Counted from the first letter of the stretch, positions 269 through 22,295 are shown. The stretch is DNA of 32,000 bases from an uncultured beta proteobacterium (GCA_963708695.1 CAVPTS010000018.1:16260-48259); one strand, 5' to 3'. Numbers and translations: made by a program. Notes: a model not told the origin generated them from the letters alone.

Positions 269-333
269 AACCTCCATCGCAACAGGTCAAGGCAAAATCT
301 TAAAAAAGTGTCGGCGACGGCTCCCGTTTTGCC
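269..333 (+). repeat. Direct repeat copy R1 (candidate att/junction sequence)
   Basis: The 65-nt sequence aacctccatcgcaacaggtcaaggcaaaatcttaaaaaagtgtcggcgacggctcccgttttgcc recurs at 11126-11189. About 58 of 65 positions match, with one A indel. Its core recurs at 17448-17472. Similarity ends at the same right-hand point (...gttttgcc) in R1 and R2. Confidence 0.6.
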
Positions 334-396
334 CTAAGCGACAGATCGGGTTGAACGCCTCCGTCAAAAGAATGGACTTAGCTTGCAGGTCTTTCG

Positions 397-654
397 ATGG
401 TTGCACTTCGAGGCCGCGTCGCCATCCGAAGAAAAGGAAAGACAGCACGCTCGCATTTACGCCTGGCTAACACGTTCATTGCCCTGCTGGCATTGGCGGT
501 AGGCGGATTTTCTGCTTACGTTTCATGGCTGTCAGATCCGCGCAACGCCGAAAATTTAGATGTCGTAGCGGACACCGAGTCGCTATGCACTTTGGAATGG
601 AGGCCGGATATCAAGGGATCGGCGACACTCAACTGCAGGGTCGTTGTCCTATGA
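397..654 (+). CDS. Hypothetical small protein with one predicted TM helix
   Basis: 85-aa ORF with the hydrophobic stretch FIALLALAVGGFSAYVSWL. The RBS is weak and I recognised no family motif. Confidence 0.3.
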   Translation: MVALRGRVAIRRKGKTARSHLRLANTFIALLALAVGGFSAYVSWLSDPRNAENLDVVADTESLCTLEWRPDIKGSATLNCRVVVL

Positions 655-708
655 AGCCTTGCTGCGTTCGTGGGAAACCCCTTCTATCGCAGTAAGGCCC
701 CGCTGATG

Positions 709-1056
709 CTAGCGTCGTCCGATCAGTAACGAGATTGCTTCTTCGAGCAGCGCCACCGAGGCATTGACGTCTCGGGCTTCAACATCCCCGCGACCGGAAA
801 GCGCCAAGTAGGCCATGTGCACGCTTGGCGAATGTTTCGCCAGTGCCACCAGGTGCGTGCCGCTTGGGCCGCGCACCGCGCTAAGCCAGTTTTGCACGGT
901 TCTCTCGCTGGCGCCCGTCCATCGGGCGATCGTTTTGACTGAGTGCTGCGAAGCCTGCATCTCTTCTCTCAGGGCCATGGCAATCGCGAGCGGATATTCC
1001 GCTCCGACTGAAATTGTTTGCTCCTCGCGCAAATTCTTGCTGTTTCTCGGCAACAT
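709..1056 (-). CDS. Helix-turn-helix DNA-binding protein (putative element regulator)
   Basis: ATG at 1056 is preceded by GGAGG. The HTH-like segment is SVKTIARWTGASERTVQNWLS. The gene is divergent from the recombinase, with a 108-bp shared intergenic region. The ORF track starts it at 1071 on a TTG. Confidence 0.6.
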   Translation of the reverse strand: MLPRNSKNLREEQTISVGAEYPLAIAMALREEMQASQHSVKTIARWTGASERTVQNWLSAVRGPSGTHLVALAKHSPSVHMAYLALSGRGDVEARDVNASVALLEEAISLLIGRR

Positions 1057-1164
1057 TTTTCGCGCCTCCAAACGTATATTTTCTGGACGGAAAGATGAAA
1101 CAAAACCAAGGGGAGCGTCGCTCGACCGTGCTGCTGTCGGGTTGCCCTGCCAAACGGAGGTGCC

Positions 1165-2739
1165 GTGAGCCGGCCAACGCGCGAAGAAGTTTCTAGCAAC
1201 TCAAAAACCGGGCGGGCGCGCGCGGCCGCATATGTGCGCATGTCGACGGACCACCAGCAATACTCAACGGAAAACCAAACAGACGTGATCCGGGCGTTCG
1301 CCGAAGCGCGCGACCTGGAAATTGTTCGGATTTACGCGGACGATGGCAAGAGCGGTCTCGTCCTGCAAGGACGCAAGTCGTTGAACGATCTGATTCACGA
1401 CGTCGAGTCCAAGTCGGTTGACTTCGAATTCATACTTGTCTACGACGTGAGTCGCTGGGGTCGGTTTCAGGATACGGACGAGAGCGCAAGCTATGAACTC
1501 CGTTGCAAACAAGCGGGCGCGCGCGTGCTCTACGTCGCAGAGCAGTTCGAAAATGACGGCAGCCCGATATCGAGCGTTATCAAAAGTCTCAAAAGAACCA
1601 TGGCCGCTGAATACAGCCGCGAACTAGGAGAGAAGGTCAAACTAGGCCAGATCCGCTTGGTCAAGAGCGGTGTTCGCCAAGGTGGGCCGGCCGGCTACGG
1701 ATTGCGCCGCGTCGCGATCGACCAAACGGGCAACGTGAAAGCCGAATTGGCACGCGGGGATCATAAATTCCTGCAGACCGAACGTGTGATCCTCAGGCCG
1801 GGGCCGCCAGACGAGGTAGCCACCGTCCAAGAGATTTACAGTGAATTCGTGCACGAGGGCCGCACGGAGTCTGAGATCGCGGTCTGGCTCAACTCCACCG
1901 GTAAGAAGACAGACCGGGGCGTCGACTGGACTCGCGGCACCGTCCATCAGGTCCTAATCAACGAGAAGTATGTGGGTCACAATGTTTGGAATCGGACATC
2001 GTTCAAGTTGAAGCAAGAGCGAATCAAAAATCCGCCCGCCGCGTGGGTGCGAAAGGACCACGCGTTTGAGCCCATCGTGGACACGCTGATGTTCGAAGCA
2101 GCGCGGCAAATCATCCTCGCTCGGTCTTATCGGCTGAGCGACGACGACATGCTCGGCGCATTGCGCACTGTTTTGCGGCAGAACGGCCTGTTGTCAGGCC
2201 TAGTTATTGATGAGGCTCCGGGGTGCCCTTCGAGCAGCGCTTTCCGCAGCCGCTTCGGAAGTCTGCTGCGCAGCTATACGCTGATCGGATATCAGCCGGA
2301 TCGAGATTATCGATTCGTTGAGATCAATCGGCGGCTGCGCGAGATGCATCCGCGCATCGTCGAGCAAGCGGTGAGAGCGATGCTCGGCGCCGGCGCGTCG
2401 GTGGAGAGCGACCCGCGCTCCGGCTTGCTTCGAATCAATGAAGAGTTCAAGGCGTCGCTGGTTCTCTGCCGCTGCCGGGCGACGGAGGCGGGCAGCAACC
2501 GATGGATCGTCCGCTTGGATGCCGCCCTAATGCCGGATATTACGGTTGTGGCGCGCATGGAGCCCGACGCACAGTCTATCCGCGACTATTTCCTGCTTCC
2601 GGCAATCGACGTGTGGGAAACCCGCGTGCGTTTGGAAGACCACAACGATTTTGGCATTGAAGCTTATCGCTTCGACGACTTGGAAATGTTGGTCCATCTA
2701 AGTCGTAGAGTTCCTTTGCGAGGGGTGTCTTATGGATGA
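1165..2739 (+). CDS. Large serine recombinase (resolvase/invertase catalytic domain plus recombinase domain)
   Basis: GTG start lies 5 nt after GGAGG. The N-terminal AAAYVRMSTDHQQYSTENQ is the catalytic-serine motif of serine recombinases. DVSRWGR and LINEKYVGHNVWNRTSF are typical of the recombinase domain. The protein is 524 aa and I saw no obvious Cys-pair zinc ribbon. Confidence 0.92.
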   Translation: MSRPTREEVSSNSKTGRARAAAYVRMSTDHQQYSTENQTDVIRAFAEARDLEIVRIYADDGKSGLVLQGRKSLNDLIHDVESKSVDFEFILVYDVSRWGRFQDTDESASYELRCKQAGARVLYVAEQFENDGSPISSVIKSLKRTMAAEYSRELGEKVKLGQIRLVKSGVRQGGPAGYGLRRVAIDQTGNVKAELARGDHKFLQTERVILRPGPPDEVATVQEIYSEFVHEGRTESEIAVWLNSTGKKTDRGVDWTRGTVHQVLINEKYVGHNVWNRTSFKLKQERIKNPPAAWVRKDHAFEPIVDTLMFEAARQIILARSYRLSDDDMLGALRTVLRQNGLLSGLVIDEAPGCPSSSAFRSRFGSLLRSYTLIGYQPDRDYRFVEINRRLREMHPRIVEQAVRAMLGAGASVESDPRSGLLRINEEFKASLVLCRCRATEAGSNRWIVRLDAALMPDITVVARMEPDAQSIRDYFLLPAIDVWETRVRLEDHNDFGIEAYRFDDLEMLVHLSRRVPLRGVSYG

Positions 2740-3649
2740 CCAAGTGAAAGGGATCGGGGCCACTCTGCCTCGCGAGGACAAGATCACGCTTATCCCTGCC
2801 AGTCAGTTGCGAGTGCTTAACCCCCGGACGCGCAATAGTTTGTTTTTCTCGCAGCTCGTAGAGAACATCGCGACAGTAGGACTCAAACGCCCTATCACCG
2901 TTGCCTTGGGTGGCCAGTCGGAGCAAGGCGACTGGTATGAGGTGCTTTGCGGGCAGGGACGCTTGGAGGCACTCCAAGCCCTTGGAGAGAGCATGATTCC
3001 ATGCTGCGTAGTCGAGGCGGATCGCGTTGAGCGGTATTTGATCAGTCTGACCGAAAACATCGCGCGTCGGCGGCACAGCACTGAAGAGTTGCTGAGCGGA
3101 TTGCAGATCCTTCGGGATCGTGGCTACACGGCAGAGCAAATCGCTCAAAAGACGAATCTCGACTCGCGATACATCACCAGCATTCTGCACCTTCTAGAAA
3201 ATGGCGAGCTTAGGCTTTTGCGTGCGGTGGAGAGGAAGGAAGTCCCATTGTGGCTTGCGATCGATATCGCTCGATCACCGCGGGAGGAAGTGCAGGCGGC
3301 GTTGGTCGCGGCTTACGAGAACGGGACATTGAAAGGCGACCAGTTGATGAAAGTCCGCAAGCTGATCACTCGCCGCGAGGCGTCCGGCAAGTCGTATTAC
3401 CCGAAAAAGAAACCTGCAAACGACACGCCCACGCCCCAGAAGCTGCTAAGGACTTACCAAGCCGAAGTCCGCCGCCAGCAATTCGTCGTTCAAAACGCGA
3501 AGATCCAAGAAAATCGACTGTTGCTCATCACCTCGACCTTCAAACGATTGTTGGCTGACGAGCATTTCCGGACACTTTTACGCGCGGAAAACATCAAGGA
3601 CATCCCTGAAACAATCGCTCGCCGCATTCCGTCGGAGTTGCTGCCATGA
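2732..3649 (+). CDS. ParB N-terminal-domain protein (ParB/Spo0J/sulfiredoxin-like fold) with HTH
   Basis: The start overlaps the recombinase stop (ATGGATGA). GLKRPITVAL...YEVLCGQGRLEALQALG resembles the ParB N-domain GxxRxxA region. The HTH-like segment is TAEQIAQKTNLDSRYITSILHLLE. Confidence 0.85.
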   Translation: MDDQVKGIGATLPREDKITLIPASQLRVLNPRTRNSLFFSQLVENIATVGLKRPITVALGGQSEQGDWYEVLCGQGRLEALQALGESMIPCCVVEADRVERYLISLTENIARRRHSTEELLSGLQILRDRGYTAEQIAQKTNLDSRYITSILHLLENGELRLLRAVERKEVPLWLAIDIARSPREEVQAALVAAYENGTLKGDQLMKVRKLITRREASGKSYYPKKKPANDTPTPQKLLRTYQAEVRRQQFVVQNAKIQENRLLLITSTFKRLLADEHFRTLLRAENIKDIPETIARRIPSELLP

Positions 3650-4545
3650 CCGAAATAAAGCACGGGTTCGAATCGCAAATCGTCGACGTTTCGCTCGCGC
3701 TGATTCGCCCGAGCTCGCCGACCCCCGCGCGTGTTTTGGCGACGCCCAAATTCCAAACCATTCTTGCGTCGATTCGCGAGTTGGGGATCATTGAGCCATT
3801 GGCCGTTTATCGATCGAGCGAGCATGCAGGTGAATACGATCTGCTTGACGGACACCTGCGCCTCGAAGCGTTGAAACAGCTCAATCGAGAAGTTGCGCCG
3901 TGCATGATTTCGCTGGATGACGAGGGATTCACTTTCAACCGCCACATCAACCGCAGCACCGCAGTCCACGAAAATCGAATGATTCGGGCGACTCTTGCGA
4001 AGGGCGCGTCTGCGGAGCGGATCGCGCAGGTGCTCAAAATCGACGTGAAGCGCGTTCGCGAAAAGGCCCATCTGCTCGACAGAATTGCGCCCGAGGTCGT
4101 TTCAATGCTCAAAGACAGGCAGGTAATCCCAAGGGTGTTCAAGGTGCTCAAAAAAATGAAACCCATGCGGCAGATCGAGGCGGCGGAGATGATGGTCGCC
4201 GCTAACCGCTTCACGGCGAGCTATGCGGAAATGATTTTCGTCACCTCGCGGCCTGAAGCGCTCATCGAGACCTCGCGCGCCAAGAAGACCGAAGAGATTT
4301 CCGCGGACGACATCGCGCGAATGGAAGCCGAGATGGAGCGGCTGCATCAAGACAGCCAAGCGGTGGAGGACAGCATCGGGGACACAATGCTTTCGTTGGT
4401 TGTCGCAAAAGGATTCACGAATCGGTTGCTGCGCAATGAGAACATCCACGAGCATCTAAGACGTCATCATCCGGATTTGCTCGCGAGCCTAGTCGGTGCC
4501 ATGGAAGCGATCGCCGCGGACAATCGCACGCCTGAGCGCGAATGA
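3646..4545 (+). CDS. ParB/RepB-like protein (second ParB N-domain paralogue with a RepB-type C-terminal region)
   Basis: ATGA overlap with the upstream gene. LGIIEPLAVYR...YDLLDGHLRLEALKQL is ParB N-domain-like. SAERIAQVLKIDVKRVREKAHLLDRIAPEV is HTH-like. The C-terminus is helical and acidic. Confidence 0.85.
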   Translation: MTEIKHGFESQIVDVSLALIRPSSPTPARVLATPKFQTILASIRELGIIEPLAVYRSSEHAGEYDLLDGHLRLEALKQLNREVAPCMISLDDEGFTFNRHINRSTAVHENRMIRATLAKGASAERIAQVLKIDVKRVREKAHLLDRIAPEVVSMLKDRQVIPRVFKVLKKMKPMRQIEAAEMMVAANRFTASYAEMIFVTSRPEALIETSRAKKTEEISADDIARMEAEMERLHQDSQAVEDSIGDTMLSLVVAKGFTNRLLRNENIHEHLRRHHPDLLASLVGAMEAIAADNRTPERE

Positions 4546-4878
4546 TGCAATTCATCATTTACGCAACTGATACCCTTGAGCAGTCGATACTCCGAAGTGT
4601 CCTCTGTTGCGGGATTATTCTGTAACGTCAGATCAAGTTGAATTGGTCCTGTTCGATAACTCTCACATCTTTGCTTGGCGCGAGAGCCCCGAGTCAGATC
4701 GTTAGTTGGCGCCTTTGTCCGAAAAAGTCTGGGACTTTCCGGATGGGCCAGTGCCGCGGTTTGCCATTGAATTAGATTCGGCAGCGCTGCATTTCATTTT
4801 TGAGTCTATGCATGCGTGCCAAGCGCGGCTACGATCCATTGTTCTTTTGCGATGACGGCCCTCTCAGCTAATCGCGCG

Positions 4879-4902
4879 CCCGTCGTGAGACGGGTTTTTT
4901 TT
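4879..4902 (+). terminator. Rho-independent terminator
   Basis: Stem cccgtc / gacggg with loop gtga, followed by eight T. It lies about 330 nt downstream of the ParB2 stop. Confidence 0.7.
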
Positions 4903-5472
4903 AATTAACGCAGGTTCGTTATGTCAGGACCCGATTAGTTACGCGGTGGGAAAGGACTACCGGCATGCCGACGATTTGCTATTCCGAAGCGCGTGCGCGA
5001 AATACTAAGGCGATAACTACGAAGCGACCAAATGACGTCCGCACCCCGCGCGTTTGCAAACGGCAGCCGTCGTCGATCCCCCGTAAATGCATTTTGTTCT
5101 ATTGTGATCGCGGGAAGCACGCCCGTTCAGCGCGATGTTGTCTTGGTTACCTCCGGTGCCGGTTGTGTCGAAAGGACGATCGCGCGGCGCGGCTGCGATA
5201 CAACCGCTATTGAAAGAGATCGAGACTTCGTGCGCGGCCACTGCGCGGGCGCTTCCTCCGCGCGATAGCCCGATGGTCCTTTGATGCCAGCACCCGTTAT
5301 TCAGGCCCTCCAGAACGTCAGCGCTATTTCGCCAGCTTCGTCACTAGTGATGAACTGCGTGCGCTTAACGTCAAGCTCTTGCCGTGTTAGCGACTCCGGC
5401 AGGCAACCACGTCGCACAGAGAAAGCATCACAACCCGGCGCCCATTTCCGGCGCAAGAATCAGAACCAAATC

Positions 5473-5689
5473 GCCCCAACTTATGCGCGCAAGCCCGCGT
5501 CTGCCCCAACATATGCGCTATTCATTCGAACGGCATGCTCCATCAGTCGAATTTCAAAGGGTAATCATGGCCGGTCCCGCTGCAACACGGCTAGGGCGAA
5601 CGGATCAACCCTGTGAAACCGCCGTTATTGACGCATACGGTGGACCGGACTACGCATAAGTTGGGGCGGCTTCACGCATAAGGTGGGGC
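5473..5689. promoter_or_regulatory. Array of a 16-nt motif GCCCCAAYWTATGCGY (two direct copies facing two inverted copies)
   Basis: The motif is GCCCCAACTTATGCGC at 5473-5488 and GCCCCAACATATGCGC at 5503-5518. Reverse-complement copies are ACGCATAAGTTGGGGC at 5652-5667 and ACGCATAAGGTGGGGC at 5674-5689. A partial copy lies at 5630-5643. The region has no convincing ORF. Confidence 0.5.
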
Positions 5690-6547
5690 AGATTCCACCT
5701 GACCGGTCGCTCCCCTTCTGTCTGTTCGATGGGCTGCGATGCTCTCCTCTCGGCTTCCATGGCACGCTCGATGGCCCAGTGATGCTCTCGAAGAAGGAAG
5801 CGCCGCGCGATCACGACACCAAGTTCAGCCGTGACATTCGGCGCGGCAACGCATTCGTGCGCTCACCTCATCCGTGATGGCTGCTCGAGTATTTGGCGCA
5901 AGCGGCTAACGAAGTGCTACGCCCGGCGCTTGGCAGAAAAGCTCACAACCAAAAAGTCATGGGCTTGCCCGATTCGTGGCGCGGAGATCGAGGTATATCT
6001 GCCCATGTTCGGGCCGAACGATCAGGACTGATGGGTCAAGGAGATCTTCTCCCACGTCAACGGCACGAACATCGTGCGACCGCGTGTGAACCGGGGGATC
6101 GCTGCGTGAGGGTGCTTCGAGGCGAAGTGATCTGCCTGATAGATAACGCGCTGCTCACCTACTGCGTCTATTTGCGGGCGGAAGCAACAAGACAAGCGGC
6201 GATCATGCTTCGATCGGCTCTTATTGCTAAGTGCAGCATGGCGGTTTGGCGGTGGAGCGGTCTGATTGTTGCGATAATGCGATAGACACTCGCGGTGAGA
6301 CAGACGGAGGCAGCGTCAGCGAAAAGGATCGCCGCGCTGGAGGCGCTGATACGCCGAGCTAAGCCCGACGTGGATGAAAGCAGCACGTGAAGTTGAAGCA
6401 GGCGATTTCCAGGTCGCCTGCAAATCAAAACTGCAGCTAATAACTACGAAAAGCACAAAATCTGGTATCTAATCGCGTCAGAGGCACAACATGTGCTATC
6501 CTCAGTTCAAAGGAAGCCTCAACTTCCTGCGGACAGGGAGTCCCCAC

Positions 6548-7249
6548 ATGATTACCGATAAGCGGAAGAAAGAGATTGAAGCGAGCGTTCGCAGCCTACA
6601 CTTGGAGGTTCTTCAAGGCGGTCGACTCAGGACAAGCGGAGGGCAACCGCATTTGATCGAACAGTTGTCTCCGGATGTTGCGATTGAGAAGTGTGGCTTC
6701 TCTTATGACGTGCGCTCAACGATGCCGTCTTCTCTTAGTGGTGCTAAGACAGAGACGGCCGGTATGATCGATTTTCTGCGCCAGATCGTGATCATTAAGG
6801 GCGGCAATTCGACGGAGATCCAGAGATTCACGGCAGGGCATGAACTTGGCCATCTTGTTCTTCACCGTGACCAGATTGGGTCGATGCCACACAGGGATCG
6901 ACCTCTGCCCGGTGGTGAAATGGGGCCGCGTTCGCCCATGGACGAAGAAGCGGATTTTTTTAGCGCGCTTTATACGGCTCCCGGGCCGACGGTGATCCAC
7001 TTCTTCCAGCAACGGTTTGGGAAGGCGCCGTTGCCTCTCAATGATCTTACGGCATACCACATCGCCGGTGAGAAAGGTCGAACTGACCTGCTGGCTGGCG
7101 ATGGCGACGCTAAGGCGTTTGCCGTTGCGGTCGCTCGGGCGGAGAAGTTCGGCGGCCATTTCAGGTTCCATTCGCTGGCAAAGCTCTTTTGTATGTCGCC
7201 TACAGCAATGGGTTTTCGACTGAGGGAACTCGGGTTGGTGGTCTACTAA
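6548..7249 (+). CDS. ImmA/IrrE-family zinc metallopeptidase-like protein
   Basis: The HEXXH motif sits in FTAGHELGHLVLHRDQ. ATG at 6548 follows GGGAG. The ORF track begins at 6491. Confidence 0.75.
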   Translation: MITDKRKKEIEASVRSLHLEVLQGGRLRTSGGQPHLIEQLSPDVAIEKCGFSYDVRSTMPSSLSGAKTETAGMIDFLRQIVIIKGGNSTEIQRFTAGHELGHLVLHRDQIGSMPHRDRPLPGGEMGPRSPMDEEADFFSALYTAPGPTVIHFFQQRFGKAPLPLNDLTAYHIAGEKGRTDLLAGDGDAKAFAVAVARAEKFGGHFRFHSLAKLFCMSPTAMGFRLRELGLVVY

Positions 7250-7303
7250 CGACACCGGTAACTTTTAGCTGTGTGCTATCTTTGAGCGCCTCTGGAGGAC
7301 ACC

Positions 7304-7942
7304 GTGCAGGCACTCAAAGACGTCGGAGAGATCACCGCTCTCCTAAGTAACACCCCGCTGTCTAAATCCCCTCTTTGGGACAAGCCGCTAGACGAACTCG
7401 ACCCGGCGCAACTTCATGCTTTCCTTACGCGACTGACCCTCGACGGACACGGCGAAGAAGCGCGGCGGATCGCGGAAGTGGTCATGGCGCAGATACGCGC
7501 TGTGCAGACACCGGCGGCGGTCGTGTCAATGCCGATTCTCGCGTTCGCTATACCGCAAGAGCGCATGACGCTTGGCGAGCTCAGACTCGGTTTAGAGAAG
7601 CTCACGCGGCCCCGGCCGGCGGCAGTCCTGTTCGGGCTTGAAACCGACATGGAGATCGATGCGCTGATTACCCTCAAATGGGATAAGGCGAACGAACTGC
7701 GCATGAGCGGCACGCTCTCGAAGATGGCAACCGATGTGCTGCGACTTGCGCCGCGGCACTTGAGCAGCCCTTACGTGTTCTGGCAGAACTTCAGCGACGG
7801 CGTGGCGCCGCTGTTCGGGTTGTCCCTGGAGCTCGCTGAAATCTTCGATATGGGTCGTTTAGGCCTAAATCCGAGCGCCGCGGGTCGGCCATATCCCAGC
7901 GTTTTGACCTTCTGCCACTCGTGTGTGCGACCGCTCGGATAA
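7304..7942 (+). CDS. Hypothetical protein, family X, copy A (N-terminus intact, native C-terminus lost)
   Basis: Residues from about DMEIDALITLKW to AEIFDM are closely paralogous to 15759-16067. After position 7853 the reading frame runs antisense through the 3' end of the ligase gene instead of the MEWPELRQAY...WLTN tail seen in copy B. Confidence 0.5.
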   Translation: MQALKDVGEITALLSNTPLSKSPLWDKPLDELDPAQLHAFLTRLTLDGHGEEARRIAEVVMAQIRAVQTPAAVVSMPILAFAIPQERMTLGELRLGLEKLTRPRPAAVLFGLETDMEIDALITLKWDKANELRMSGTLSKMATDVLRLAPRHLSSPYVFWQNFSDGVAPLFGLSLELAEIFDMGRLGLNPSAAGRPYPSVLTFCHSCVRPLG

Positions 7943-8597
7943 GGCGAGTTTAGTCGCTTGGCCACCATCCCCTCGAAGCCATGATGCTCAACCTGTTCAA
8001 AGACCCACTCGCCGGCGCCGACAATCCCGTTCATGAAAACAAGGGTGCCAGTGTCATCGAAGCTGTCTCGCAGGAACGCTTTACGTTTGATCAGCGTCAT
8101 GCCGCGCAGGTCTCGATCCCCAATCGTCAACATATCGAACATGTAGAGTCGCGCGGGCTTGGCGATCGCTGCTGCTTTAATCCGAGACGCCACCGAGGTC
8201 GTCGAACGTGAAAGCAGCTTTTCAAAGTTCGAATGGCCGCCCGGGTCATCGACCGTAAGCTCGGCGTCCACGTGAAGTCGCCCGGGACTTGAGCGACCGC
8301 GGCAACGATCTCGGGAAACGATCGGTTCAGAGAATTGCCAGGACGCGAGATGAGCTCCACGCTGTCGCCCTGCTTCCTGATCAAGCACCGGAACCCGTCG
8401 TATTTCCATTCGAAGATCCAGCCCTCGAGGGAGAACGGCGCGCGCTTGAGTGTGGACAGCATGAGGTCGGCCGCCTCAATCGGCTTCACAAGCGGCACAC
8501 CGGGAGGCCTGGCCCGGACAGCGATTTTCTTCGCTGTTGTCGGCGCTTGCAGAGCACGAGCCATTCGATCCCCGATCAGTCTATCGGCCGACATCAC
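7771..8597 (-). pseudogene. ATP-dependent DNA ligase interrupted by one frameshift
   Basis: Frame 1 (8597 to about 8274) contains motif I, EWKYDGFRCL. Frame 2 continues with VDAELTVDDPGGHSNFEKLL, FEGMVAKRLNSPY (motif IV-like) and EWQKVK (motif V-like). The frames switch at about 8268-8274. The native stop is missing relative to copy B. Confidence 0.8.
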
Positions 8598-10755: not shown

Positions 10756-10972
10756 ATAGGTCGCACAGACGCGACCTATTGGATCTCGAAGCACCCTACT
10801 TTTGCGACCTATCCTGCCGTCAATAGGTCGCACGGGTGCGGACTATTCGGGGGAAAACCATCTGCCGAGAGGGTGCGACCGGTCGATCTGTGGACAACTG
10901 CCTACGGTTAAAAGCGATAGGTCGCACCGCAGCGATCAGTTGGCTACGATTCCTCGCTCCGTTGCGACCTAT
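10756..10972. promoter_or_regulatory. Array of the 10-nt motif TGCGACCTAT / ATAGGTCGCA in alternating orientation
   Basis: Exact copies lie at 10756-10765 (rc), 10803-10812, 10823-10832 (rc), 10917-10926 (rc) and 10963-10972. A 9/10 copy lies at 10770-10779. Degenerate copies are near 10836-10848, 10874-10882 and 10987-10996. The array sits between the membrane-protein gene start and R2. Confidence 0.55.
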
Positions 10973-11125: not shown

Positions 11126-11189
11126 AACCTCCGTCGCAACCGGCCGAGGAAAATTCTTAAAAAGTGTCGGCGACGGCTCCCGTTTTGCC
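11126..11189 (+). repeat. Direct repeat copy R2
   Basis: The sequence aacctccgtcgcaaccggccgaggaaaattcttaaaaagtgtcggcgacggctcccgttttgcc aligns with R1 over its full length. Confidence 0.6.
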
Positions 11190-14620: not shown

Positions 14621-15094
14621 ATGAGCACACGTCTAGGAATCTTCCTTGCTCTTCTTGCCTGCTTTACCCTGAGCGTCGACGCTTTCGCCGCCGACATAGG
14701 TTGCGAGCAGCCGGCTTACGACGCTTCAGTAAAAGGCAATGGCTGCAACCCTTATGCTGGAACCGACCCAGGCGGCTCTGGAAAAGGCGGTGGCGGTGGC
14801 TCCATTTCCACTGCCGAGGGAATAGCTGAACAGAGATGCACTATGGCACAGCGTGCAGGGGTAGCTGGATGCAAATCGAAAGGTGGCACGACGGCGCAGA
14901 TCACATCCTGCGAGAGCAACGTAGATACCACCGAGGAACAATGCATTAAACATGTTAAGGCCACTTACGACCCCGCCCCCGCCACTGGCGAAGCGAGCGA
15001 CAACTCCATCACAGGAAATTCCAAAAACGCCAAGGCGAAGTCTTCCGGCGTTCACGTTGGGATACCGGCGTCTGCACTTAAGCACACCCAGTGA
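14621..15094 (+). CDS. Secreted Cys- and Gly-rich hypothetical protein
   Basis: GGGAG RBS. The signal-peptide-like N-terminus is MSTRLGIFLALLACFTLSVDAFA/AD. The protein has several Cys residues and a GGSGKGGGGGS tract. Confidence 0.6.
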   Translation: MSTRLGIFLALLACFTLSVDAFAADIGCEQPAYDASVKGNGCNPYAGTDPGGSGKGGGGGSISTAEGIAEQRCTMAQRAGVAGCKSKGGTTAQITSCESNVDTTEEQCIKHVKATYDPAPATGEASDNSITGNSKNAKAKSSGVHVGIPASALKHTQ

Positions 15095-15137
15095 CCGTTC
15101 ATAGCTGCGAGAGTTGCCTCTCGCAGCCGGTGTTTCC

Positions 15138-15605
15138 CTACGCGGCTTCCCGTTCGTATGACTCCAAAATCTCCTGGATCACGCCGTGCCGCACGACATC
15201 CTTCTTTTCGAACCGCACGTGGCCGATGGACGGAATCCACGTCACACGCTCGATGGCGTCGGTGAGACCGGACTTGCCGCGGGACATCGACCTGCCCCGT
15301 TTCCCCGTTGATGATCAGGCGCGAGCCCTCCCCGATGCTGGTCAGGAACATCTTCATCTGCTCGGGCGCGGTATTTTGCGCTTCGTCTAAAATTACGATC
15401 GCATTTTTAAACGTCCTCCCGCCCATGTAGGCTAGCGGTGCGCCCTTGATGTTGCCCATGCGCTTGTGATACTCGTAAGCGCCGGTGCCCAGGCGCTCGA
15501 CCATGACTTCTTCGAACGGCACTAGGTAGTGGCTGAACTTCTCTTCCATCCCGCCAGGCCATAGTCGATCCGCCCGTTACCGGCACAATGGACTTGTGCA
15601 TCTTT
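15138..15605 (-). pseudogene. PhoH-family ATPase remnant (5'-truncated and frameshifted)
   Basis: APLAYMGGRTFKNAIVILDEAQNTAPEQMKMFLTSIGEGSRLIINGETGQVD matches the conserved PhoH core. The C-terminal GKSGLTDAIERV...FEKKDVVRHGVIQEILESYE lies in a different frame. No Walker A region is present upstream. Confidence 0.75.
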
Positions 15606-17447: not shown

Positions 17448-17472
17448 GTGTCGGCGACAGCTCCCGTTCTGC
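17448..17472 (+). repeat. Direct repeat copy R3 (degenerate core)
   Basis: gtgtcggcgacagctcccgttctgc matches the R1/R2 core at 23 of 25 positions. A TAGGTCGC 8-mer, the core of the 10-nt array motif, lies at 17401-17408. Confidence 0.45.
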
Positions 17473-21641: not shown

Positions 21642-22295
21642 CTAACGGAATCGCCACAGCTGTGGAACCTTTTCGCGGAGCATCGCCTCCAGCTCTGCTA
21701 ATTCCTCTGCGTTTATCCTTTTACTTAACACCTGCCTGACCGCTTGCTGGATTTCCCTCCTGTACTTAATAAGAAACGCCGGGTGAGCGCTTTCGATCTT
21801 CAGATACTTGTTTCCTGGGCTCCGGGTTATCCGGACGTGGATGCTATCGAACGGCAAGACGTTGTTGCCACGAAGCTCGTCAAACACATGTCGTTCGGAG
21901 CGCACTGCTGAGCACCGATCAACCCATAGCGCTCGCTTGCTCAGTTGCTCCAAGCCAAGTTCATTTTTTATCTCGAGTAACGCCGCCGCTCCGCCGGATG
22001 TCAGTGATTTGGGCATCAGGAATAGAATTCTGACAGGCGCCGGTAACGCGGCAACTTGAATCGCACGAGTCAGCGTCGTTCGCGTCACTCCAAGCTTTTT
22101 TGCGCCTTCCGTGATGGTCCGCCATTTTCCTTGCGCCTTCCCTTCATGGAATTCTTTCGCAAGCTCCAGTGGATAGACGTCCTTCGTAGCTCGTAATGGG
22201 ACCACACATTCATTGCTGTCTGTCATTTTGATAGTTCCAGGTTTTCTAAGTTGCCGGATAGCTTCCTGAGTCTCGGCTCTGTGCCTATTAACCAT
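21642..22295 (-). CDS. DNA-binding protein with a ParB/KorB-type HTH region and no ParB N-domain
   Basis: TITEGAKKLGVTRTTLTRAIQVAALPAPVRILF...LTSGGAAALLEI resembles the HTH and following helix of ParB-family proteins (..lG.s...vs..l.l..LP..v). The start codon is uncertain; the alternative is MTDSNE at 22226. Confidence 0.5.
   Translation of the reverse strand: MVNRHRAETQEAIRQLRKPGTIKMTDSNECVVPLRATKDVYPLELAKEFHEGKAQGKWRTITEGAKKLGVTRTTLTRAIQVAALPAPVRILFLMPKSLTSGGAAALLEIKNELGLEQLSKRALWVDRCSAVRSERHVFDELRGNNVLPFDSIHVRITRSPGNKYLKIESAHPAFLIKYRREIQQAVRQVLSKRINAEELAELEAMLREKVPQLWRFR

Follow-up and report, generated by a model that had tools for sequence, protein, structure and literature searches.

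Large serine recombinases are prized tools of genome engineering, and a zinc-ribbon/coiled-coil region, together with small directionality factors, is held responsible for the direction and the sites of their reactions. In Tn4451 (TnpX), Tn5397 (TndX) and SCCmec (CcrAB), such an enzyme excises and inserts a discrete element. In the phiC31 and Bxb1 systems, the serine integrase is paired with a recombination directionality factor (RDF), and the factors known for serine integrases are small proteins that act by binding the coiled coil. Here we analysed a stretch of 32,000 nucleotides from an uncultured beta proteobacterium (GCA_963708695.1, CAVPTS010000018.1:16260-48259; the whole stretch is called the window below), in which a large serine recombinase gene is chained to two ParB-like genes and diverges from a small helix-turn-helix (HTH) gene. 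Our comparisons point to a compact autonomous integrative (transposon-like) element composed of these four genes, with the ParB-like proteins as accessory subunits, and we put the probability of this reading at roughly 55%. The minimal form of the element would measure about 3.9 kb, and the copy in the window about 4.2-4.8 kb.

The cassette resembles Tn4451, Tn5397 and SCCmec in that a large serine recombinase would excise and insert a discrete element. However, the TnpX and TndX transposons are from Firmicutes, whereas the hosts of the cassette are Proteobacteria and it has essentially no cargo. Furthermore, the C-terminal region of its recombinase is unrelated to those of TnpX, TndX and CcrAB, having no zinc ribbon, coiled coil or DUF4368, and the recombinase is obligatorily linked to the two ParB-like genes and the HTH gene. 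Its catalytic and recombinase domains match those of phiC31 and Bxb1 structurally, and one or more accessory proteins may set direction in the cassette too. Unlike in the integrase/RDF pairs, the recombinase is without the coiled coil and the candidate partners are two ParB-family proteins of 300 aa. These share with the ParB, Noc and KorB clamps and with repABC RepB the fold, the domain order and the RepB C-terminal family, and the EN-type box III of ParB clamps is retained in ParB-like 1. They differ from ParB, Noc and KorB by an altered GERRxRA box, by having no ParA or RepA partner and no parS that we could find, and by being a fixed pair of paralogues tied to a recombinase. The par locus in the stability region of plasmid RK2 has a similar layout, with a serine recombinase operon divergent from a small regulatory/stability gene. 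However, RK2 ParA is a small resolvase and RK2 ParB, a homologue of staphylococcal nuclease, does not have the ParB/Srx fold, and the cassette, unlike RK2 par, is mainly chromosomal and an insertion polymorphism.

The cassette is apparently undescribed. PADLOC-DB 2.0 gave a single match for the four proteins, a sub-significant one between a type II methyltransferase model and ParB-like 1 (E 0.0029, 14.4 bits). Full-text searches of the literature, including searches with protein accessions, found no description of the cassette, although their coverage was incomplete and the result is absence of evidence only. An earlier reading of this DNA, made from the sequence alone (the sequence-only reading), could name no characterised system of this composition, and neither PADLOC nor these literature searches supplied one. 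The genes and their control region are as follows.

709-1071, minus strand: HTH gene, an open reading frame (ORF) of 120 aa; the probable start at ATG 1056 gives 115 aa
1072-1164, no strand assigned: divergent control region, with a TATATT hexamer at 1075-1080 beside the HTH ribosome-binding site
1165-2739, plus strand: serine recombinase gene, 524 aa, start GTG 1165
2732-3649, plus strand: ParB-like 1 gene, 305 aa
3646-4545, plus strand: ParB-like 2 gene, 299 aa

The three plus-strand ORFs are chained by overlapping stop and start codons, namely ATGGATGA at 2732-2739 between the recombinase and ParB-like 1 genes and ATGA at 3646-3649 between the two ParB-like genes, and the HTH gene is divergent, with ATG 1056 and GTG 1165 lying 108 bp apart. 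Both points had been made by the sequence-only reading and were confirmed. The arrangement was compared in 80 genome loci (one genome per species) and 80 metagenome loci. The order HTH (minus), recombinase, ParB-like 1 and ParB-like 2 (all plus) and the spacing were constant in essentially all of the genome sample in which the contig was long enough, and the trio of recombinase and ParB-like genes was retained in the metagenome sample down to about 38% ParB-like 2 identity. Closer relatives were not met in the metagenome scan, none being above 69% identity. The trio, which had been singled out as a possible undescribed module, is therefore conserved as a unit in the same order at about 150 independent loci from genomes and metagenomes, which is more than chance would produce. 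The module has to be drawn wider in one respect, in that the divergent HTH gene is part of the unit as well: loci of Paraburkholderia, Pseudomonas and Agrobacterium, and most of the genome loci, have a homologue of it at this place.

The cassette ranges over alpha-, beta- and gammaproteobacterial genomes, plasmids and metagenomes, with hundreds of chromosomes and plasmids having it, and the genera that have it include Burkholderia, Paraburkholderia, Herbaspirillum, Pseudomonas, Stutzerimonas, Azospirillum, Magnetospirillum, Rhizobium and Pantoea. ParB-like 2 matches more than 2,600 protein clusters, and about 110 plasmid records encode a relative of it. The majority of the inspected copies are on chromosomes, complete ones included. 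On plasmids of Paraburkholderia, P. aeruginosa and A. fabrum C58, for example, the four genes are annotated as hypothetical (minus strand), 'recombinase family protein' and two 'RepB C-terminal domain-containing' proteins. Toxin-antitoxin or Abi genes often adjoin the cassette. Phage records gave 2 weak matches in 50,697, and the element is not a phage. A ParA partner was looked for as the motif KGGxGK[ST] in ORFs of at least 150 aa within 10 kb, by regular expression and not by a profile search. By this test the window has none, as the sequence-only reading had stated, and the motif was present at 1 of 90 loci; since most inspected copies are also chromosomal, its view that the locus is not a classical partition module stands. 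We conclude that the four-gene unit is neither a partition module nor merely cargo.

The evidence for mobility comes from the boundaries of the cassette and from its presence or absence at particular sites. In an all-against-all comparison of loci, the similarity of many independent pairs (85-99.5% nucleotide identity) is confined to the stretch between the HTH stop (-17 to +40 bp) and the ParB-like 2 stop (-2 to +19 bp), and in some clades a few hundred extra bases are shared on one side. Near-identical copies (93-99.5% at the nucleotide level) were seen in unrelated surroundings, their similarity ending within tens of bases of the outer stop codons. For example, L144, L148 and L154 share about 4.3 kb at 99.5% identity, but the left flanks are different in all three; the right flank is common to L148 and L154 and different in L144. 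One Stutzerimonas genome has two diverged copies (78% identity). The closest long relative of the window, L004 (ParB-like 2 88% identical), shares only window 791-4535, and the flanks are unrelated. Similarity to L177, whose cassette is 91% identical, starts at 702, 7 bp outside the HTH stop, and similarity to L170-172 (90% identical) runs 356 bp beyond the ParB-like 2 stop, to 4901.

Presence and absence could be compared in Agrobacterium. The 3,904-bp cassette of C58 pAt recurs in pAt1D1460 at 96.9% identity beside other neighbouring genes; its left flank (AbiEii) was found cassette-free in pAtCFBP5507a, and its right flank (Fic) was found cassette-free in an A. pusense plasmid. The C58 copy is bracketed by an imperfect direct repeat of 20-27 bp (left copy CCTTGAAGGGAGTTGAACCG, right copy CCTTGAGCGGAATCGAACC), of which the unoccupied sites have one copy each, and its joined ends would read ...CACCTTGAGCGGAATCGAACC followed by GTTGGCCCG... 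These junctions carry what we read as the signature of site-specific insertion into a target resembling the joined ends of the element, and the targets of Tn4451 and Tn5397 likewise resemble their joined ends. Attachment sites of integrase-type large serine recombinases measure 40-50 bp and have dyad symmetry about a central dinucleotide. The direct repeat has no clear dyad symmetry, and its T-arm-like look is probably a coincidence; tRNA genes were rejected as targets, none being adjacent in 51 loci. In several Pseudomonas copies, inverted repeats stand at the points where similarity ends, such as TCGACCCAAAGCTGCC / TCGACCCATAGCTGCC and CGGCCATTAGCGGACA / CGACCCATAGCGGACA. No empty site was found for the Pseudomonas megaplasmid copy, and no small circular contig with the cassette was found. 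TCGRC-N-GCTSCC was considered as a universal end motif, since the window and some loci of Pseudomonas and Herbaspirillum are enriched for it in the orientation expected of an end. It was rejected, being defined post hoc and absent from most loci.

The sequence-only reading had also suggested that the ParB-like pair may be an accessory, directionality, silencing or maintenance component of a recombinase-driven element. The four genes are more than an accessory of some larger element: with at most a few hundred bases, they behave as a mobile unit themselves. At the level of sequence, the conservation of the four genes, the sharp boundaries, the presence and absence in Agrobacterium, the intact catalytic residues and the absence of ParA can be taken as established; that the recombinase itself moves the cassette is what we infer.

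In the window, possible ends of the element lie outside the boundaries given above, at two copies of a repeat of 19 bp, here called S.

311-329, plus strand: candidate left terminal repeat S, TCGGCGACGGCTCCCGTTT (tentative)
5058-5076, minus strand: candidate right terminal repeat S, TCGACGACGGCTGCCGTTT on the minus strand (tentative)

The two copies form an inverted repeat (17/19) that flanks the cassette, and joining the right and left ends of the window's copy gives a near-palindrome of about 44 bp, GCAAACGGCAGCCGTCGTCGA followed by TCGGCGACGGCTCCCGTTTTGC. L170-172 and L100 have the identical 19-mer on the right-hand side of the cassette and in the same orientation, and L101 has it there with one mismatch; ParB-like 2 of L100 and L101 is only 61-65% identical to that of the window. 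S had no match in plasmids. We regard 311-5076 as the candidate full element and 702-4901 as its conservative core.

Some other features were observed around S. A 40-nt direct repeat (93% identity) at window 294-333 and 11150-11189 includes S and brackets 10.9 kb, and the Logan contig L176 (10,885 bp, 100% identical) starts and ends exactly in the 40-nt repeats. These repeats, together with a further S copy at 17451-17469, may bound a composite element of larger size, or may be solo ends or a repeat of the host. The metagenome variants L170 and L173 are 99.4% identical over a 2-kb block and differ in a 724-bp segment (L170:2391-3114), which in L170 holds the operon terminator, S twice and the window left flank (118-330) in inverted form. 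The orientation of the cassette relative to this flank is opposite in L170 and in the window.

The recombinase has both domains expected of its class, Resolvase (PF00239, 1.3e-20) and Recombinase (PF07508, 7.4e-22) in Pfam, and its catalytic motifs YVRMSTDHQ and DVSRWGR (DxSRWGR) were invariant in 46 homologues, so that the catalytic motif called unambiguous from the sequence alone is borne out. In the AlphaFold2 (AF2) model (pLDDT 77), residues 1-300 match serine integrases by Foldseek, the matches including serine-integrase complexes, some of them with an RDF, as well as Bxb1 and phiC31; the alignment with serine integrases covers about 300 residues with a TM value of 0.44, and the matches end at about residue 300. 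The C-terminal 200 aa or so of the model comprise a helical part and then a beta-rich part. Because the last 179 aa have zero Pfam matches even at E<=10, because no conserved Cys cluster was present in the 46 homologues, and because neither Pfam nor Foldseek matched a zinc ribbon, coiled coil or DUF4368 in the C-terminal region, the zinc-ribbon/coiled-coil module is absent or replaced. This module is defining for integrase-type large serine recombinases and serves outer-site recognition and directionality. As modelled, the protein is of a large integrase-like type with an unrelated C-terminal region. The best NCBIfam match was CcrB, far sub-threshold, and TnpX was among the PDB sequence matches; source annotations name the protein 'Pin-like invertase'.

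Both ParB-like proteins belong with RepB and ParB in Pfam: ParB-like 1 matched RepB (6e-15) and, under the gathering score, ParB_N (1.9e-4), and ParB-like 2 matched RepB (2.2e-32) and ParB_N (4.9e-7). ParB-like 1 has a ParB N-domain, an HTH DNA-binding domain and RepB-type C-terminal helices in this order, and phmmer aligned it with Spo0J residues 10-183, through the HTH domain. In the AF2 model of ParB-like 2 (pLDDT 79), the first 200 residues match the N-terminal and HTH domains of ParB, Noc and KorB with a Foldseek probability of 1.0 over about 200 residues, and long C-terminal helices extend beyond the HTH domain. KorB and the KorB-KorA co-complex (8qa8, 8qa9) were among its top structural matches. 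The two proteins are distant paralogues (26% identity over 159 aa), and PHROG families of unknown function matched both of them full-length.

The sequence-only reading had described a degenerate GERRxRA box in each of the two. In phmmer alignments with Spo0J, Noc and Caulobacter ParB, GQGRLEA of ParB-like 1 and GHLRLEA of ParB-like 2 fall exactly on GERRxRA, in agreement with that description. Furthermore, the canonical nucleotide-binding box is replaced family-wide, by CGQGRxEA in ParB-like 1 and DGhLRxEA in ParB-like 2. Among 137 unique sequences of ParB-like 1, the invariants were NPRxRN, GLKRPITV, CGQGRxEA and ENlARRxHS; the invariants of ParB-like 2 were LLDGhLR, DDEGF, QEH and MKPmRQIE. 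Since these non-canonical N-domain motifs are strongly conserved, the pockets are altered, not decayed. No parS-like palindrome or repeated operator conserved across clades was found inside the cassette or in the intergenic regions, although the proteins may still have a binding site there.

The product of the HTH gene matched HTH_23 marginally (24.7 bits against a threshold of 24.6) and has the conserved core K-T..RWT.A.ERTV.NWL.G..GP.G.HL..L..HS. Comparison of the intergenic regions of 24 loci revealed that ...CAT TTTTC..CCTCC.AA..TATATT is common to the Burkholderia through Pseudomonas clades, and region 1072-1164 is a putative promoter or operator. We propose that the large serine recombinase would cut the cassette out and re-insert it, using as recombination sites the extreme ends of the cassette, which would overlap or lie just past the outward-facing stop codons. 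Translational coupling would supply the ParB-like proteins in fixed proportion, and a heterodimer is probable. They would serve not as partition proteins but as obligatory accessory DNA-binding subunits of the recombination machine, possibly as nucleotide-gated clamps, and would provide site recognition, synapsis or directionality in place of the missing zinc-ribbon/coiled-coil region. The small HTH protein would control the divergent promoter (TATATT 1075-1080). One may go further and suppose a widespread unrecognised family of minimal transposons, in which a recombinase without the zinc-ribbon/coiled-coil region acts only with a ParB-family clamp heterodimer that sets sites and direction. 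This extension we offer tentatively, and we would sooner doubt it than expect it.

Several points weigh against the integrative element as drawn here. S also occurs at 11167 and 17451 (2 mismatches), away from any cassette, and was not present in L004 or in L177, of which 1.6 kb upstream was covered; the S of the window may be a host repeat. Neither a circular junction nor a precise empty site was recovered for the window's copy. In Agrobacterium, the unoccupied sites for the left and right flanks were found on two different plasmids rather than as a single intact site. The ends of the cassette vary between clades, no universal end motif was found, and in a search of 76 loci direct repeats at the ends were convincing only in the Agrobacterium copies. 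L016 and L027 (Burkholderiaceae) share a 7-kb island whose right-hand end is formed by the cassette, which means that in some genomes the cassette may move within bigger elements. This island starts with the 3' 45 nt of a tRNA-Arg (L016:3872-3916; L027:692-767), the tRNA being complete only in L027, where an additional 3.1-kb insertion lies within the island (2947-6103). Finally, the whole job of the ParB-like pair, contact with the recombinase or the sites included, is something that we infer.

Other explanations were weighed against the same data. The cassette may be mobile while its ParB-like and HTH proteins act only in sliding-clamp repression of the operon and of incoming transcription, in the manner of KorB and KorA, with no role in recombination. 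KorA/KorB co-repression is known from RK2 (and from PDB entry titles), and it would agree with the appearance of KorB and KorB-KorA (8qa8, 8qa9) among the best structural matches of ParB-like 2 and with a small HTH gene that diverges at a conserved promoter region. However, two large regulators (600 aa in total) would rarely be kept by a minimal selfish element across alpha-, beta- and gammaproteobacteria, the cassette holds no clade-wide operator or parS-like palindrome that we could find, and the GERRxRA box of the CTP switch is altered in both proteins, which makes this explanation rather unlikely. We find it harder still to believe that the pair protects the excised, non-replicating circle until re-integration by binding it and tethering it, either to the nucleoid or, hitch-hiking without a ParA of its own, to a partition system of the host. 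A circle this small would presumably be lost easily, and both proteins have the full ParB-like architecture, with an HTH domain and a C-terminal dimerisation-type domain. Nevertheless, no ParA lies nearby by the regular-expression test (1/90 loci), conserved centromere-like repeats were not found, and to our knowledge the known transposons with large serine recombinases manage without tethering their circles. Both of these explanations remain serious.

The remaining two are less probable again. That the four genes are a non-mobile passenger, a stability module of plasmids or islands that combines multimer resolution with a partition-like function as in RK2 parCBA/parDE, seems very unlikely to us, because most copies are chromosomal, complete chromosomes included, because cassette-sized blocks of identity stand within unrelated flanks, because the Agrobacterium insertion has repeat-bearing junctions, and because the recombinase is of the large integrase-like type. 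In its favour are the roughly 110 plasmid records, the frequent toxin-antitoxin or Abi neighbours and the divergent promoter layout, which recalls RK2 par. We give least credence to an invertible segment, or to a defence or addiction cassette whose ParB-like nuclease acts on invading or cured DNA. Inverted repeats do flank the window and Pseudomonas cassettes, but the half-sites of attachment sites predict inverted ends equally; the cassette is opposite in L170 and the window relative to the shared flank 118-310, but the proposed flip switches no promoter or gene. The recombinase bears the label 'Pin-like invertase' and the neighbours are often defence-type genes; against this, PADLOC matched only ParB-like 1, sub-significantly, and none of the other three proteins, and no nuclease-type metal-binding motif was identified, as far as can be told from the family invariants without a dedicated test. 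An integrative element whose ParB-like proteins assist the recombinase is thus the explanation that we favour.

Downstream of the operon, the window has one more feature.

4790-4902, plus strand: conserved 3' block, non-coding, with an intrinsic terminator at its end (stem 4878-4895 and T-run)

This block is about 92% identical to L170-L172, the 90%-identical relatives, despite a frame-breaking indel, seen against L171, and is better conserved than the preceding 250 bp; it may be an RNA derived from the 3' untranslated region or a protein-binding region. A fifth small ORF 3' of ParB-like 2 was considered for the window and ruled out because the frame-breaking indel separates the window from these relatives. 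In L071, L076, L079, L081, L083 and L084, the start of an ORF (…GGAGGAATC.AGATGTCCAACGCAGACCTGCTCCC…) lies directly 3' of ParB-like 2, which suggests that this Pseudomonas subclade has a fifth gene. In 26 related loci, the window not among them, a structured non-coding block of about 105-135 nt begins 8-76 bp past the ParB-like 2 stop (L030:5325-5449, L031:10914-11039, L047:10941-11065, L144:4545-4670 and about 22 others), with the sequence GGGGACC[CG]GGACCCGA.AAGCGC...GGAGCCCAC and 75-99% nucleotide identity to the L144 copy in all 26. RNAalifold gave 31 pairs, and compensatory double changes were seen in 12. The block matched no Rfam family, and its covariance model (R1) matched only that subclade and had no match in the window; it is a candidate for a new structured RNA tied to the operon. 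Rfam itself had no matches in the window, L170, L100 or L101.

Two unusual occurrences were noted outside the main set. In S. meliloti M162 pSymA (L178), ParB-like gene fragments at 3440-4391 and 7055-7807, from which the recombinase is gone, are interleaved with RelE/ParE and RelB toxin-antitoxin pairs. Matches in several other S. meliloti records are split in 2-3 pieces, suggesting decayed copies too, and the pSymA copies, as decayed fragments, were unusable for junction mapping. A plasmid record labelled as from Lactiplantibacillus plantarum, a Firmicute (NZ_CP110863.1, 13 kb; H9, H33), bears a proteobacterial-type cassette with 41% ParB-like 2 identity and a recombinase 64% identical at the nucleotide level, which could be contamination, mis-assignment or genuine long-range transfer.

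The surrounding 25 kb of the window resembles a decaying accessory island, and chromosomal polysaccharide-synthesis genes begin near 25 kb. The island encodes an IrrE/M78 peptidase, another ParB-HTH protein, a fragment of PhoH and an ATP-dependent DNA ligase that is broken into two frames, with features at 7771-8597 (minus), 15052-15549 (minus), 6491-7249 (plus) and 21642-22295 (minus). It also has two arrays of motifs. The array at 10756-10972 (also 9618 and 17401) consists of hairpin-type units TAGGTCGC-N-GCGACCTA, with 8 copies of the octamer against 0.67 expected, and the array at about 5473-5690 has two inverted pairs of GCGCATA[AT]G[TG]TGGGG. The sequence-only reading had put these arrays forward for binding tests with the ParB-like proteins. 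None of the 176 related loci has either motif, and both occur only in the window and in the identical Logan contig; the arrays are therefore not partners of the cassette, and this link had to be dropped.

The idea of an integrative element with ParB-like accessory subunits is directly testable, since A. fabrum C58, a model organism, has an intact copy on pAt (ATU_RS24150-24135). Thousands of chromosomal genes labelled 'plasmid partitioning protein RepB C-terminal domain-containing protein' or 'ParB-like chromosome segregation protein' are probably parts of mobile elements, and such labels should not count as evidence for plasmids or partition systems. If the reading is true, the ParB fold would have a new job and serine recombinases a new way to be controlled; a ParB-type replacement of the zinc-ribbon/coiled-coil region would represent a different control logic and could yield new programmable parts. 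The biology of ParB/CTP clamps would then extend past segregation, nucleoid occlusion and plasmid gene silencing.

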